This document shows positions 1 to 3,273 of a stretch of DNA of 3,273 nucleotides, one piece after another. Where the stretch lies: the NCBI RefSeq assembly GCF_003334255.1, contig NZ_QOWU01000123.1, one strand, 5' to 3'. This DNA comes from Escherichia coli (GTDB taxonomy: Bacteria; Pseudomonadota; Gammaproteobacteria; Enterobacterales; Enterobacteriaceae). A model generated the notes under the pieces. That model saw nothing but the letters and a program-made list of their open reading frames with translations. It did no database searches and was not told where the DNA came from. A program made the translations under genes and the position numbers. Position 1 is the first letter of the stretch. The number at the start of each line of letters is the position of its first letter.

Positions 1-29
1 ATCGACGATTGCTGGAAAGGCTGGGCCAT
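1..29 (-). CDS. 5' end of an outward-reading ORF of unknown function (MAQPFQQSS..., runs off the left edge); mirror copy of the start at 3261
   Basis: Minus-strand ATG at 29..27 preceded by the reverse complement of GGAGGAG at 39..33; nine codons are visible before the window edge. It lies inside the left inverted-repeat arm, so it is sequence-identical to the right-arm start. Only a few codons are visible, so coding status is tentative. Confidence 0.3.
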
Positions 30-132
30 ACTCCTCCGGCAGAAGCAGAAAAAGCTTATTATGCTTCCATCGGAAACAATGATCTGGCAGCCTGAGTTCA
101 CAGATAAAACACTCTCCAGGAAACCCGGGGCG
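17..132. repeat. Left arm of long inverted repeat (at least 116 bp)
   Basis: Reverse complement of 3158..3273 equals 17..132 at 115 of 116 positions; the single mismatch is at 78 (A) versus 3212. Pairing stops at 133/3157. The outer end coincides with the window edge, so the repeat may be longer. Confidence 0.93.
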
Positions 133-458
133 GTTCAGATGGGCGTCTAAGTTACCAATTCTCGTCTGATGGCTACATACGGCGGTCAGTTTACGCTTAC
201 AAAACTACAGCCCTGGGTAGTTGCAGTTCAGGACGTTGGGATGATCAGGATGAATGGGGGGAGCAAGCACGGGGAATCAGAGATGCAATTAATGCTAAAC
301 TTGATGATCCGCACAAATGGAAAAGGAAAAAATGCAGGTTGCATATGGAATTCTCCCGGGATGGCACGGCTTTAAAAATATCAACCAGTGACGGCGATAA
401 AGCCTATTGCGAAGCGATAAAGTCAGCAGCCCATAAAGCTAAATTCCCGGCTTTCAAG
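108..458 (+). pseudogene. TolA C-terminal domain (domain III)-like ORF fragment; no in-frame start, 3' end interrupted or displaced by the IS256-family element
   Basis: The frame containing 108..575 is open after a TAA at 105..107 and has no ATG or GTG before 345. Positions 276..458 translate to IRDAINAKLDDPHKWKRKKCRLHMEFSRDGTALKISTSDGDKAYCEAIKSAAHKAKFPAFK. From memory, E. coli TolA ends ...IKSAIESKF...KTCTLRIKLAPDGMLLDIKPEGGDPALCQAALAAAKLAKIPKPP...; the two Cys (codons 333..335 and 408..410) are 25 residues apart in both, with DG and GD at the same offsets. The overlapping ORF from ATG 169 is in a different frame, and a G6 run at 256..261 separates the two frames. Confidence 0.5.
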
Positions 459-459
459 G

Positions 460-481
460 GAGTGTTAGAAATTCTGTGTCA
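460..481. repeat. Putative left terminal inverted repeat of the IS256-family element
   Basis: GAGTGTTAGAAATTCTGTGTCA matches the reverse complement of 3065..3086 (GAGCGCTCAGAATTCTGTGTCA) at 16 of 22 positions, including a perfect 12-bp core. It lies 33 bp upstream of the transposase ATG. Confidence 0.35.
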
Positions 482-514
482 TTCCAGTAATATACAACCA
501 AAAAGGAATGACAC

Positions 515-1046
515 ATGTCCCAACCCTTCGATTTCGATAAAGCGCTTAAGGCCCTCCAGTCCGGCCAAGCATTAACCGGCAAGGATGGTATCCTAACGCC
601 ATTAATCAAACAGTTAACAGAAACCGCTCTGGCCGCTGAACTCGACTCCCATCTGGCTCAGGATGTTGAAGTCAATCGTAAAAATGGTTCCGGAAAAAAG
701 ACCATTAAAGCCCCGACTGGCAGCTTTGAGCTGGCAACTCCACGTGATCGTAATGGTTATTTTGAACCCCAACTGGTGAAGAAGCACCAGACCACGCTGT
801 CTGATGAGCTCGAGCGCAAGATCATTCGCCTGTTCGCGCTGGGGATGAGCTACCAGGATATCAGCCGGGAGATCGAAGATTTATCCCCTTCAGTGTTTCC
901 ACGGCTACCATCAGTGCGGTTACCGATAAAGTCATTCCTGAGTTAAAACAGTGGCAGCAGCGCCCGCTGGAGAAGGTTTATCCCTTCGTCTGGCTGGACG
1001 CCATTCACTATAAAATCCGCGAAGATGGGGGTTATCAGAGCAAGGC
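515..1046 (+). pseudogene. IS256-family transposase, 5' portion; frameshifted near 884..888 and then interrupted by IS2
   Basis: ATG at 515 with AAGGA at 503..507. The translation MSQPFDFDKALKALQSGQALTGKDGILTPLIKQLTETALAAELDSHLAQ...TPRDRNGYFEPQLVKK... carries motifs I recognise from IS256-type (Mutator-like) transposases. The starting frame stops at 944..946, but the homologous sequence continues one frame over from about 883 (IPFSVSTATISAVTDKVIPELKQWQQRPLEKVYPFVWLDAIHYKIREDGGYQSKA), implying a 1-nt indel in the C run 885..888. The frame is then broken at 1047 by IS2. Confidence 0.85.
1042..1046. repeat. IS2 target-site duplication, left copy (AAGGC)
   Basis: AAGGC immediately precedes the IS2 terminus TAGACTGG at 1047 and is repeated at 2378..2382, directly after the other terminus. 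Confidence 0.9.
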
Positions 1047-1087
1047 TAGACTGGCCCCCTAAATCTCCAGACAACCAGTATCACTTA
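1047..1087. repeat. IS2 terminal inverted repeat (insC-proximal end)
   Basis: About 41 bp, imperfectly matching the reverse complement of 2336..2377. Shared blocks are CCCC, TCCAGACA and TATCACTTA. It contains the internal palindrome TATCACTT-ATTT-AAGTGATA at 1079..1098. Confidence 0.6.
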
Positions 1088-1137
1088 TTTAAGTGATAGT
1101 CTTAATACTAGTTTTTAGACTAGTCATTGGAGAACAG

Positions 1138-1503
1138 ATGATTGATGTCTTAGGGCCGGAGAAACGCAGACGGCGTACCACACAGGAAAAGATCGCAATT
1201 GTTCAGCAGAGCTTTGAACCGGGGATGACGGTCTCCCTCGTTGCCCGGCAACATGGTGTAGCAGCCAGCCAGTTATTTCTCTGGCGTAAGCAATACCAGG
1301 AAGGAAGTCTTACTGCTGTCGCCGCCGGAGAACAGGTTGTTCCTGCCTCTGAACTTGCTGCCGCAATGAAGCAGATTAAAGAACTCCAGCGCCTGCTCGG
1401 CAAGAAAACGATGGAAAATGAACTCCTCAAAGAAGCCGTTGAATATGGACGGGCAAAAAAGTGGATAGCGCACGCGCCCTTATTGCCCGGGGATGGGGAG
1501 TAA
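1138..1503 (+). CDS. insC: IS2 OrfA (InsC), 121 aa helix-turn-helix regulator and N-terminal part of the OrfAB transposase
   Basis: ATG at 1138 with GGAGA at 1128..1132. The translation [56 protein letters not shown]...LLPGDGE matches the IS2 InsC sequence as I remember it. The ORF-track start at 1093 is an upstream in-frame extension without an RBS. Confidence 0.95.
1455..1461 (+). other. IS2 programmed -1 ribosomal frameshift site (A AAA AAG) joining insC to insD
   Basis: AAAAAAG lies in the insC/insD overlap, and insD is in the -1 frame relative to insC. This is the known IS3-family recoding arrangement that produces the OrfAB transposase. Confidence 0.8.
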
Positions 1504-2366
1504 GCTTAGTCAGCCGTTGTCTCCGGGTGTCGCGTGCGCAGTTGCACGTCATTCTCAGACGAACCGATGACTGGATGGATGGCCGCCGCAGTCGTCACAC
1601 TGATGATACGGATGTGCTTCTCCGTATACACCATGTTATCGGAGAGCTGCCCACGTATGGTTATCGTTGGGTATGGGCGCTGCTTCGCAGACAGGCAGAA
1701 CTTGATGGTATGCCTGCGATCAATGCCAAACGTGTTTACCGGATCATGCGCCAGAATGCGCTGTTGCTTGAGCGAAAACCTGCTGTACCGCCATCGAAAC
1801 GGGCACATACAGGCAGAGTGGCCGTGAAAGAAAGCAATCAGCGATGGTGCTCTGACGGGTTCGAGTTCTGCTGTGATAACGGAGAGAGACTGCGTGTCAC
1901 GTTCGCGCTGGACTGCTGTGATCGTGAGGCACTGCACTGGGCGGTGACTACCGGCGGCTTCAACAGTGAAACAGTACAGGACGTCATGCTGGGAGCGGTG
2001 GAACGCCGCTTCGGCAACGATCTTCCGTCGTCTCCAGTGGAGTGGCTGACGGATAATGGTTCATGCTACCGGGCTAATGAAACACGCCAGTTCGCCCGGA
2101 TGTTGGGACTTGAACCGAAGAACACGGCGGTGCGGAGTCCGGAGAGTAACGGAATAGCAGAGAGCTTCGTGAAAACGATAAAGCGTGACTACATCAGTAT
2201 CATGCCCAAACCAGACGGGTTAACGGCAGCAAAGAACCTTGCAGAGGCGTTCGAGCATTATAACGAATGGCATCCGCATAGTGCGCTGGGTTATCGCTCG
2301 CCACGGGAATATCTGCGGCAGCGGGCTTGTAATGGGTTAAGTGATAACAGATGTCTGGAAATATAG
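1461..2366 (+). CDS. insD: IS2 OrfB (InsD), 301 aa DDE integrase-like catalytic domain
   Basis: Open frame from GTG at 1461 to TAG at 2364..2366. The translation ...[21 protein letters not shown]...[50 protein letters not shown]... matches IS2 InsD as I remember it, with the IS3-family DDE region. It overlaps insC in the -1 frame. Confidence 0.95.
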
Positions 2367-2377
2367 GGGCAAATCCA
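2336..2377. repeat. IS2 terminal inverted repeat (insD-distal end)
   Basis: Reverse complement TGGATTTGCCCCTATATTTCCAGACATCTGTTATCACTTAAC aligns imperfectly with 1047..1087. Confidence 0.6.
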
Positions 2378-2382
2378 AAGGC
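2378..2382. repeat. IS2 target-site duplication, right copy (AAGGC)
   Basis: Direct repeat of 1042..1046, immediately after the IS2 terminus at 2377. Confidence 0.9.
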
Positions 2383-3053
2383 AGTTTATACCGTACTGGC
2401 GCTGAATCTGGAAGGCAAAAAAGAAGTCCTGGGCCTGTATTTGTCGGAAAGCGAAGGCGCTAACTTCTGGCTGTCAGTATTAAGTGATCTGCAAAACCGT
2501 GGCGTTGAAGACATTCTGATTGCCTGCGTGGATGGGCTGACCGGCTTCCCTGAAGCGATAAACAGCATTTATCCGCAGACAGAGGTACAGTTGTGCGTCA
2601 TTCACCAGATACGTAACTCGATTAAATATGTGGCGTCAAAACACCATAAAGCGTTCATGGCCGACCTGAAGCCAGTGTATCGTGCGGTGTCAAAAGAAGC
2701 AGCGGAAACGGCGCTGGATGAGCTGGAAGCGAAATGGGGGCAGCAATATCCGGTGGTGCTCCAGTCCTGGCGCCGCAAGAGGGAAAATCTGTCAGCGTAC
2801 TTCCGCTATCCGGCGAATATCCGCAAGGTGATCTACACAACCAACGCGATAGAATCAGTCCACCGCCAGTTCAGGAAACTGACCAAAACCTAAAGGTGCT
2901 TTCCCAAATGAAAACAGCCTGTTGAAGCTACTTTATCTGGGACTGATGAACGCACAGGAGAAATGGACAATGCCCATCCAAAGCTGGAATTTGACATTGT
3001 CGCAGTTAGCCATTTATTTTGAAGGGCGGCTGAATAATGTGATGACGCTGTAG
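2378..3053 (+). pseudogene. IS256-family transposase, 3' portion; additional frameshift at about 2891
   Basis: Resumes exactly after IS2 (...YQSKA / VYTVLALNLEGKKEVLGLYLSESEGANFWLSVLSDLQNRGVEDILIACVDGLTGFPEAINSIYPQT...) and runs to TAA at 2891..2893. Homology then continues one frame over from 2892 (KGAFPNENSLLKLLYLGLMNAQEKWTMPIQSWNLTLSQLAIYFEGRLNNVMTL) to TAG at 3051..3053, implying a 1-nt insertion near 2891. The motifs DILIACVDGL...FP and KW.MPIQ.W are typical of IS256-family transposases. Confidence 0.85.
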
Positions 3054-3064
3054 AATTTTTAACG

Positions 3065-3086
3065 TGACACAGAATTCTGAGCGCTC
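3065..3086. repeat. Putative right terminal inverted repeat of the IS256-family element
   Basis: Inverted partner of 460..481; begins 12 bp after the transposase stop. It contains the 8-bp palindrome GAGCGCTC. Confidence 0.35.
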
Positions 3087-3107
3087 TCAAATTAAAATCA
3101 TCGATAT

Positions 3108-3137
3108 TTAACAAGTTTAAATTATTAAGATTATTTT
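3108..3137 (+). promoter_or_regulatory. Candidate sigma70-like promoter in the AT-rich spacer, reading rightward into the right repeat arm
   Basis: TTAACA at 3108..3113 (5 of 6 to TTGACA), then 17-18 bp to TTATTT/TATTTT at 3131..3137. The surrounding 3087..3157 is about 80 percent A+T. Such matches occur readily by chance in AT-rich DNA. Confidence 0.2.
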
Positions 3138-3157
3138 AATCAAGATTAAAAGTGAAT

Positions 3158-3273
3158 CGCCCCGGGTTTCCTGGAGAGTGTTTTATCTGTGAACTCAGGC
3201 TGCCAGATCATCGTTTCCGATGGAAGCATAATAAGCTTTTTCTGCTTCTGCCGGAGGAGTATGGCCCAGCCTT
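3158..3273. repeat. Right arm of long inverted repeat (at least 116 bp)
   Basis: Reverse complement is identical to 17..132 except at one position (3212 C versus 78 A). The arm runs to the last base of the window. Confidence 0.93.
3261..3273 (+). CDS. 5' end of an outward-reading ORF of unknown function (MAQP..., runs off the right edge); mirror copy of the start at 29
   Basis: GGAGGAG at 3253..3259, then ATG at 3261; the frame is open to the window edge. Same sequence as the left-arm copy because it lies in the inverted repeat. Confidence 0.3.

Follow-up and report, generated by a model that had tools for sequence, protein, structure and literature searches.

The window, which is the whole 3,273-nt stretch of DNA analysed here, is a nested pile of insertion sequences (IS) from an IncK2/Z- or IncI-like Escherichia coli plasmid, and it sits where the nikB side of the transfer backbone meets an acquired island carrying ireA (siderophore receptor). 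Its features, each with the basis of the assignment, are:

1-137, plus strand: assigned as the 3' end of a left IS629/IS1203-like (IS3-family) element (translation of the OrfB C-terminus; identity to complete copies)
138-198, minus strand: left end of ISEc23 (IS66 family), terminal 61 bp (terminus GTAAGCG on the minus strand; continuity in L001 and L004)
199-206, no strand: one copy of the 8-bp ISEc23 target duplication, AAAACTAC (comparison with L001 and L012)
199-457, plus strand: internal fragment of a gene for a TolA C-terminal domain (99.6% identity to the intact 131-aa gene of pNMBU-W12E19_01, L012)
458-3088, plus strand: IS256-family element, frameshifted and split by IS2 (NF033543 matches both halves)
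1047-2377, plus strand: IS2, 1331 bp (terminal repeat; BLAST boundaries 1047-2377; OrfB profile)
3089-3152, no strand: 64-bp AT-rich spacer native to the ireA island (contiguity in L017 and L018)
3153-3273, minus strand: assigned as the 3' end of a right IS629/IS1203-like element, inverted (translation; continuation in identical plasmids)

DNA between the arms

All of the DNA between the two terminal arms is assigned, to the end of ISEc23, the TolA-like fragment, the IS256-family element with its IS2 and the ireA-island spacer. Positions 138-198 are continuous with a complete ISEc23 (tnpA-tnpB-tnpC) in L001 and L004, the remainder of which is replaced or interrupted in the window by the left IS629-like copy. 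The boundary of ISEc23 at 198 is fixed by its 8-bp target duplication: in L001 the far end of the element reads ...GCCAT AAAACTAC / GTAAGCGTC... and the window-side end ...CGCTTAC / AAAACTAC AGCCC (slashes marking the boundaries), and a single AAAACTAC is found in the uninterrupted gene of L012. On IncI/K-type plasmid backbones this TolA-like gene sits downstream of the nikB relaxase gene; the NCBIfam TolA matches of the 199-457 fragment are weak and fall below the curated cut-offs, and backbone homology ends at 457.

The IS256-family element contributes about 1295 bp of its own sequence in two parts (458-1046 and 2383-3088) with imperfect terminal repeats (GGGAGTGTTAGAAATTCTGTGTCA and GAGAGCGCTCAGAATTCTGTGTCA), and a related copy found in another context (H174) also ends at 3088. 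RefSeq annotates it as 'IS256 family transposase, frameshifted', and together with ireA it forms a single-copy module in about 310 genomes. The IS2 that splits it is flanked by a 5-bp target duplication, AAGGC, read directly at 1042-1046 and 2378-2382, and its OrfB matches NF006918 (IS2 transposase TnpB) at 724 bits. Beyond the IS256-family element comes the adjoining spacer (3089-3152), which in the chromosomal islands L017 and L018 runs on as ...GATTAAAAG / CATTACAACC toward ireA. The DNA between the arms that does not belong to the IS256-family element amounts to 384 bp (138-457 plus 3089-3152), about what the initial annotation had estimated (roughly 400 bp).

The inverted repeat and the identity of its arms

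A repeat search of the window places the arms of the inverted repeat at 17-137 and 3153-3273 (121 nt, 98% complementary, 2 mismatches), with a spacing of 3015 nt. The repeat is genuine and far above chance expectation: exact inverted matches reach 61 nt in the window, whereas those of 100 shuffled sequences average 12 nt at their longest and never exceed 16 nt. Its mismatches fall at 78/3212 and 133/3157. The first is the only one within 17-132 / 3158-3273, where our recount agrees with the 115 of 116 complementary positions given in the initial annotation; the second had been taken for a sharp end of pairing, but four more bases pair beyond it (134-137 / 3153-3156), and pairing stops exactly at the IS termini (...GGTTCA at 137 and TGAAT... 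at 3153). The suspicion that the repeat might extend past the window was borne out by relatives that are 100% identical over 135-3273: in these, the 16 bases past the right window edge are the exact reverse complement of window positions 1-16, so that the arm is at least 137 nt long.

The arms very probably (roughly 93%) represent the right end (3' part of orfB together with the right terminal repeat) of two tail-to-tail copies of an element of the IS629/IS1203 group, cut by the window edges. The left arm consists of the last 30 codons of orfB (3-92), a stop codon (93-95) and a right terminal repeat ending in ...CCCGGGGCGGTTCA at 137; its translation, RRLLERLGHTPPAEAEKAYYASIGNNDLAA followed by the stop, matches the C-terminus of the 296-aa OrfB of a complete copy, a protein that matches the NF033516 profile (IS3 family transposase) at 314 bits. 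The right arm begins with the right terminal repeat, starting TGAATCGCCCCGGG at 3153, and continues on the minus strand with the stop and the last 25 codons of orfB (translation RLGHTPPAEAEKAYYASIGNDDLAA, then stop). The termini of the arms, ...GGCGGTTCA (137) and TGAATCGCC... (3153), have the 5'-TG...CA-3' terminal inverted repeat of the IS3 family; the left terminal repeat of the element is TGAACCGCCCCGGGAATCC..., and the complete copy at 9779-11088 of L001 begins TGAATCGCCCCGGG and finishes CCCGGGGCGGTTCA. Placing the arms at the left (5') end of the IS was rejected on the annotated transposase orientation in L001, which makes them the right (3') end.

Complete 1310-bp copies in L001, L003, L004 and L016 have ends that share 98.5-99.3% identity with the left arm. 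On the right, a complete 1310-bp copy with TGAA...TTCA termini is present in NZ_CP060062.1, L003, L006 and L011, all of which are 100% identical to window positions 135-3273. The window itself holds only the last 25-30 orfB codons, and the frameshift and OrfB domains are read from complete relatives, whose copies have orfA and orfB with an annotated programmed frameshift and an AL1L pseudoknot, as in the IS3 family, and whose IS transposase is recorded with the Pfam domains HTH_Tnp_1 and rve. Of 5426 complete E. coli genomes, 4264 contain a match to the 1310-bp IS and 3043 a full-length copy (80% or more of its length); genomes having any show a median of 4 places, and chromosomes and plasmids alike carry the IS. 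Copies about 96% identical carry the annotation IS1203 or IS629 family. At clean insertions elsewhere it is flanked by 3-4-bp target duplications (GTCC in L018, GGC in L003). Other tail-to-tail inverted pairs of the same IS occur in L016 (513 bp apart) and L015 (3.8 kb apart); the IS256-family fragments beside these pairs were considered as the window's element and rejected, being unrelated to it at the nucleotide level.

A third type of IS, overlooked in the initial annotation, thus explains in full a repeat that had been thought beyond the reach of the IS elements present. Of the origins proposed there, an inverted duplication of a gene 5' region does not fit arms made of the 3' end of a transposase gene and a terminal repeat, and the termini of one larger element do not fit arms that come from two distinct 1310-bp elements and represent the right end in each. 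The recent duplication deduced from the near-identity of the arms holds in the form of transposition copies; the near-identity itself may fail further out, two copies on one related plasmid being 95.4% identical over their full length.

Junctions and possible history

The left junction, where the IS end meets ISEc23 (137/138), is absent from complete E. coli genomes (BLAST of 1-470 and of the whole window) and from PLSDB plasmids (BLAST of the whole window and of 40-240), both searches returning two-piece, non-contiguous matches only; exact scans with 33-nt junction sequences gave 0 hits in GTDB species-representative genomes and 0 in JGI metagenomes. An exact-protein look-up of the 143-aa N-terminal IS256 fragment retrieved 10 loci, all with ISEc23 or another IS66-family element on the left and none with an IS629-like copy there. 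The junction looks like a lineage-specific insertion. The left copy is probably full-length; its outer part lies beyond the window, and it could be a fragment. Compared with the resident copy types, the left arm differs at 2 positions from the right-hand type and at 1 from a third copy, matching neither exactly. A resident copy probably transposed in the IS3 manner (copy-out-paste-in via a circular intermediate) into ISEc23, 61 bp from the ISEc23 end, possibly with loss of adjacent DNA.

The right junction recurs, identical at every base, in metagenome contigs and in several independent complete plasmids. In relatives the right copy has no target duplication (AAAAG / IS / GTTTT), so it owes its present position to rearrangement at the IS and not to simple insertion. 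The relatives that lack this copy (L007, L008, L009 and NZ_CP116070.1) were considered as the empty site and rejected: the chromosomal ireA islands identify AAAAG as ancestral, which makes the IS-less plasmids products of imprecise excision.

An unlikely alternative is an effect of assembly, whereby the contig would end in a collapsed multi-copy IS, one arm would be misjoined, or one arrangement of a mixed population would have been captured. Both arms reach the window edges at about the k-mer length of an assembler (137 and 121 nt), as in a short contig broken in a multi-copy IS; the IS is indeed multi-copy, and the left junction is unique to this sequence. Both junctions, however, lie exactly on IS termini, which is the signature of transposition and not of a chimeric join, and makes the collapsed-repeat artefact raised in the initial annotation improbable for them; the right junction is confirmed by the independent plasmids and contigs, and the arms differ at 2 positions, hence are not one collapsed copy.

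The one consequence of the arrangement is that its two inverted homologous copies can recombine through RecA, so that the 3-kb junk segment would be inverted and further plasmid rearrangement promoted; the IS629-like pair fits the earlier suggestion of a possible substrate for RecA-mediated inversion. That the pair is an active module, repeatedly inverting or mobilising the 3-kb segment and driving movement of the ireA island between IncK/I plasmids and chromosomes, is very unlikely.

Also very unlikely is a composite transposon, in which the inverted IS629-like copies and the 3-kb segment would move as a unit via the outer (left) IS ends. The IS-cargo-IS geometry is that of Tn5- and Tn10-type elements, but the cargo is merely IS debris and a gene fragment, and the two-arm unit was found at no second site or record among complete E. 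coli genomes, PLSDB plasmids, GTDB representatives and JGI metagenomes. All relatives share the interior but have ISEc23 in place of the left copy, so that the arms were gained singly, in situ. Transposition of IS3-family elements goes through a circle in which the right and left ends abut, and a unit with a left end on either side would therefore be expected to serve poorly as a substrate.

Although the inverted repeat encloses a discrete segment, a programmed phase-variation switch, inverted by a site-specific recombinase acting on the arms, can be practically dismissed: no gene for a serine or tyrosine recombinase appears within or alongside the segment, either among the window's ORFs or in the annotation of relatives, every ORF that matches a family is either a transposase or the TolA-like fragment, the arms are IS ends rather than short recombinase sites, the interior has no intact non-transposase gene to switch, and the relatives, which lack the left arm, all show one orientation.

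The arrangement as two tail-to-tail IS copies has no designed function and is ordinary rather than a new structure; only the left junction is so far unrecorded. The value of the assignment lies mainly in annotation, where the proper label for the repeat is a truncated pair of known IS copies and not a new repeat class or switch, and in the lesson that a long inverted repeat at both ends of a short E. coli plasmid window calls for a check of multi-copy IS ends first. The locus preserves, in compact form, how IS copies accumulated and were excised step by step around a plasmid-borne ireA island.

Comparison with known systems

The IS629/IS1203/IS3411 group of the IS3 family comprises 1310-bp elements abundant in E. 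coli O157 and Shigella. The copies described here resemble them in length (1310 bp), in their TGAACCGCCCCGGG... termini, in the programmed -1 frameshift between orfA and orfB, in the rve-type OrfB and in the 3-4-bp duplications at clean insertions. The right copy is about 96% identical to sampled copies annotated as IS1203 family; unlike the named IS629 and IS1203, these isoforms bear no RefSeq label more specific than 'IS3 family transposase'.

As in the composite transposons Tn5 and Tn10, a segment lies between two inverted copies of one IS. Unlike in these, the segment in the window has no selectable cargo and gives no sign of having moved as a unit, its flanking copies were gained stepwise, and the use of two like ends, in contrast with Tn5 and Tn10, is disfavoured by the IS3-family mechanism.

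Nothing of substance, beyond a particular left junction unrecorded so far, distinguishes the window from the IS graveyards found at the borders of IncI/IncK/IncF accessory modules and in pathogenicity islands of ExPEC, such as the ireA island. Like them, it combines nested insertions (IS2 in the IS256-family element, the IS629-like copy in ISEc23 and, in relatives, ISEc45 in ISEc23) with module borders that have no target duplications and with several lineage-specific variants of one region.

Identity of the inverted repeat

A repeat search places the two arms at 17-137 and 3153-3273 (121 nt, 98% complementary, 3015-nt spacer). Exact inverted matches in the window reach 61 nt, against longest matches that average 12 nt and never exceed 16 in 100 shuffled sequences, so that the repeat noted in the initial annotation is confirmed. 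The arms mismatch at two positions, 78/3212 and 133/3157; the latter had been taken for a sharp end of pairing, but four further bases pair beyond it and the limits lie at 137 and 3153. The suspicion that the repeat exceeds the window is borne out by relatives, in which the first 16 bases outside the right edge complement window 1-16 exactly; the repeat is therefore longer than its visible part.

Either window end, compared by BLAST with 5426 complete E. coli genomes, matches thousands of places, labelled "IS3 family transposase" or "IS3-like element IS1203 family transposase". In plasmid NZ_CP060062.1 of E. coli G6/7 (L001; IncK2/Z, MOBP), with practically the same sequence over window 135-3273, the right arm extends into a complete 1310-bp element (L001 9779-11088; termini TGAATCGCCCCGGG... 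and ...CCCGGGGCGGTTCA) with minus-strand orfA and orfB and an annotated programmed frameshift. This continuation identifies the arm as the 3′ end of the element, made up of the final orfB codons with their stop, followed by the right terminal repeat. Translations of the left (RRLLERLGHTPPAEAEKAYYASIGNNDLAA) and right (RLGHTPPAEAEKAYYASIGNDDLAA) arms, each followed by a stop, are OrfB C-termini that match the full copy's 296-aa OrfB, a protein with a 314-bit match to NCBIfam NF033516 (IS3 family transposase). The full element is matched in 4264 of the 5426 genomes, and over at least 80% of its length in 3043 (median of 4 places per genome having any); copies about 96% identical to it are labelled IS1203 or IS629 family. 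Since both arms correspond to the 3′ end of one element, the "repeat" is a tail-to-tail pair of a common IS, each copy truncated by a window edge.

Relative to the left arm, the right copy has two base differences and a third copy on related plasmids has one. On a single plasmid, L003, two full-length IS629-like copies (12639-13949 and 19081-20391) are only 95.4% identical and differ at just 3 positions over their right-end 137 bp, so the near-identity of whole copies cannot be predicted from how closely the visible arms agree.

DNA between the arms

An origin can be assigned to every base between the arms:

138-198, terminal 61 bp of the IS66-family element ISEc23, which runs on into complete tnpA-tnpB-tnpC in L001 and L004
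199-457, internal fragment of a TolA C-terminal-domain gene; backbone homology ends at 457
458-3088, frameshifted IS256-family element split by IS2
1047-2377, IS2 (1331 bp), with the 5-bp duplication AAGGC at 1042-1046 and 2378-2382
3089-3152, AT-rich spacer that belongs natively to the ireA island

The boundary at 198 is fixed by the 8-bp target duplication AAAACTAC, made upon insertion of ISEc23 into the TolA-like gene, which is found at both ISEc23 ends in L001 and once in the uninterrupted gene. In intact IncI/K-type backbones this gene sits between the nikB relaxase gene and trbC. ISEc23 of relatives carries ISEc45 (IS110 family).

The IS256-family transposase frame is broken near 885-900, ORF 515-946 terminating out of frame; because all plasmid relatives share the lesion and chromosomal copies are likewise annotated as frameshifted, the window's copy is long dead. 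In L002 (GCA_000407805.1; 10670-17881) the IS256 halves lie about 7.2 kb apart, and window homology stops at 1184, within IS2, and restarts at 2284, pointing to additional DNA within IS2.

The IS256-family element, spacer 3089-3152 and the siderophore receptor gene ireA make up a single-copy module present in about 310 complete genomes, for the most part on chromosomes, and the comparison suggests its capture onto IncK/I plasmids along with the IS256 border. In the chromosomal loci L017 and L018 (locus positions 2200-4860) the module is part of an ExPEC island, and its IS256-family element contains an IS629-like copy at window-equivalent position ~560, with the 4-bp duplication GTCC in L018; in the plasmid lineage it bears IS2 instead.

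Junctions of the two copies

The right copy shows no target duplication in relatives (AAAAG/IS/GTTTT); cleanly inserted copies of this IS are flanked by 3-4-bp duplications (GTCC in L018, GGC in L003). Chromosomal islands read GATTAAAAG/CATTACAACC at this site, which puts the right copy at a joint at which the island sequence downstream has been replaced. Relatives lacking the copy (L007 12625-12645, L008, L009 and NZ_CP116070.1) read GATT/CA/GTTTTGAGG, and the filled form (window 3141-3160, L001 11080-11100) GATT AAAAG (1310-bp IS) GTTTTGAGG. At AAAAG the chromosomal ireA islands have GATTAAAAG/CATT..., indicating that AAAAG is ancestral and that the IS-less plasmids are imprecise excisions, with 1313 bp gone, a TT microhomology at the joint and the IS terminal CA retained.

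Ten loci with the same frameshifted IS256 fragment have window 135-3273 or 135-3147 in common, their left neighbour being ISEc23 except in L003, where another IS66-family element has gone in 76 bp from the end of ISEc23. The left junction (IS629-like right end/ISEc23, 137/138) is absent from all ten, and from complete E. coli genomes, PLSDB plasmids, GTDB representatives and JGI metagenomes; the most plausible reading is that a resident IS629-like copy inserted into ISEc23 in this lineage alone. This left copy may be full-length or a fragment. The left-end ~80 bp of ISEc23 was struck independently at least twice (window 138-206; L001 2841-2856; L003 9596-9684), the IS629-like copy lying 61 bp from its end in the window and the IS66-family element of L003 76 bp.

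Origin and alternatives

Repeated strikes on an IS-rich region leave nested copies in opposite orientations. A pair of homologous copies in inverted orientation is a valid substrate for RecA-dependent inversion, and this part of the earlier interpretation stands. The initial annotation is upheld as an observation and only partly as an interpretation.

The arms could also have arisen by a chimeric join, or collapsed repeat, in assembly; this is unlikely, since both junctions fall exactly at IS termini, the right one recurs in independent complete plasmids and the arms differ at two positions. The window may be a short contig broken within a multi-copy IS, as suggested by arms of roughly k-mer length (137 and 121 nt) at both edges. 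A composite transposon, with the IS pair and interior moving as one unit, is also unlikely: its cargo would be junk, each arm was gained separately, the unit was found at no other place in the collections searched, and it would offer two left ends, unlike the right-left end junction through which IS3-family transposition works. A programmed switch driven by a site-specific recombinase is unsupported in a segment with neither such an enzyme nor an intact non-transposase gene.

Tail-to-tail pairs of the same IS elsewhere, with spacings of 513 bp in L016 (BEN5202 chromosome) and 3.8 kb in L015 (pEGY2), mark the configuration as commonplace. Both the IS and this kind of arrangement are known. The excision seen in the IS-less plasmids resembles a described process, the IEE-dependent excision of IS629 with small adjacent deletions (PMC9943667).
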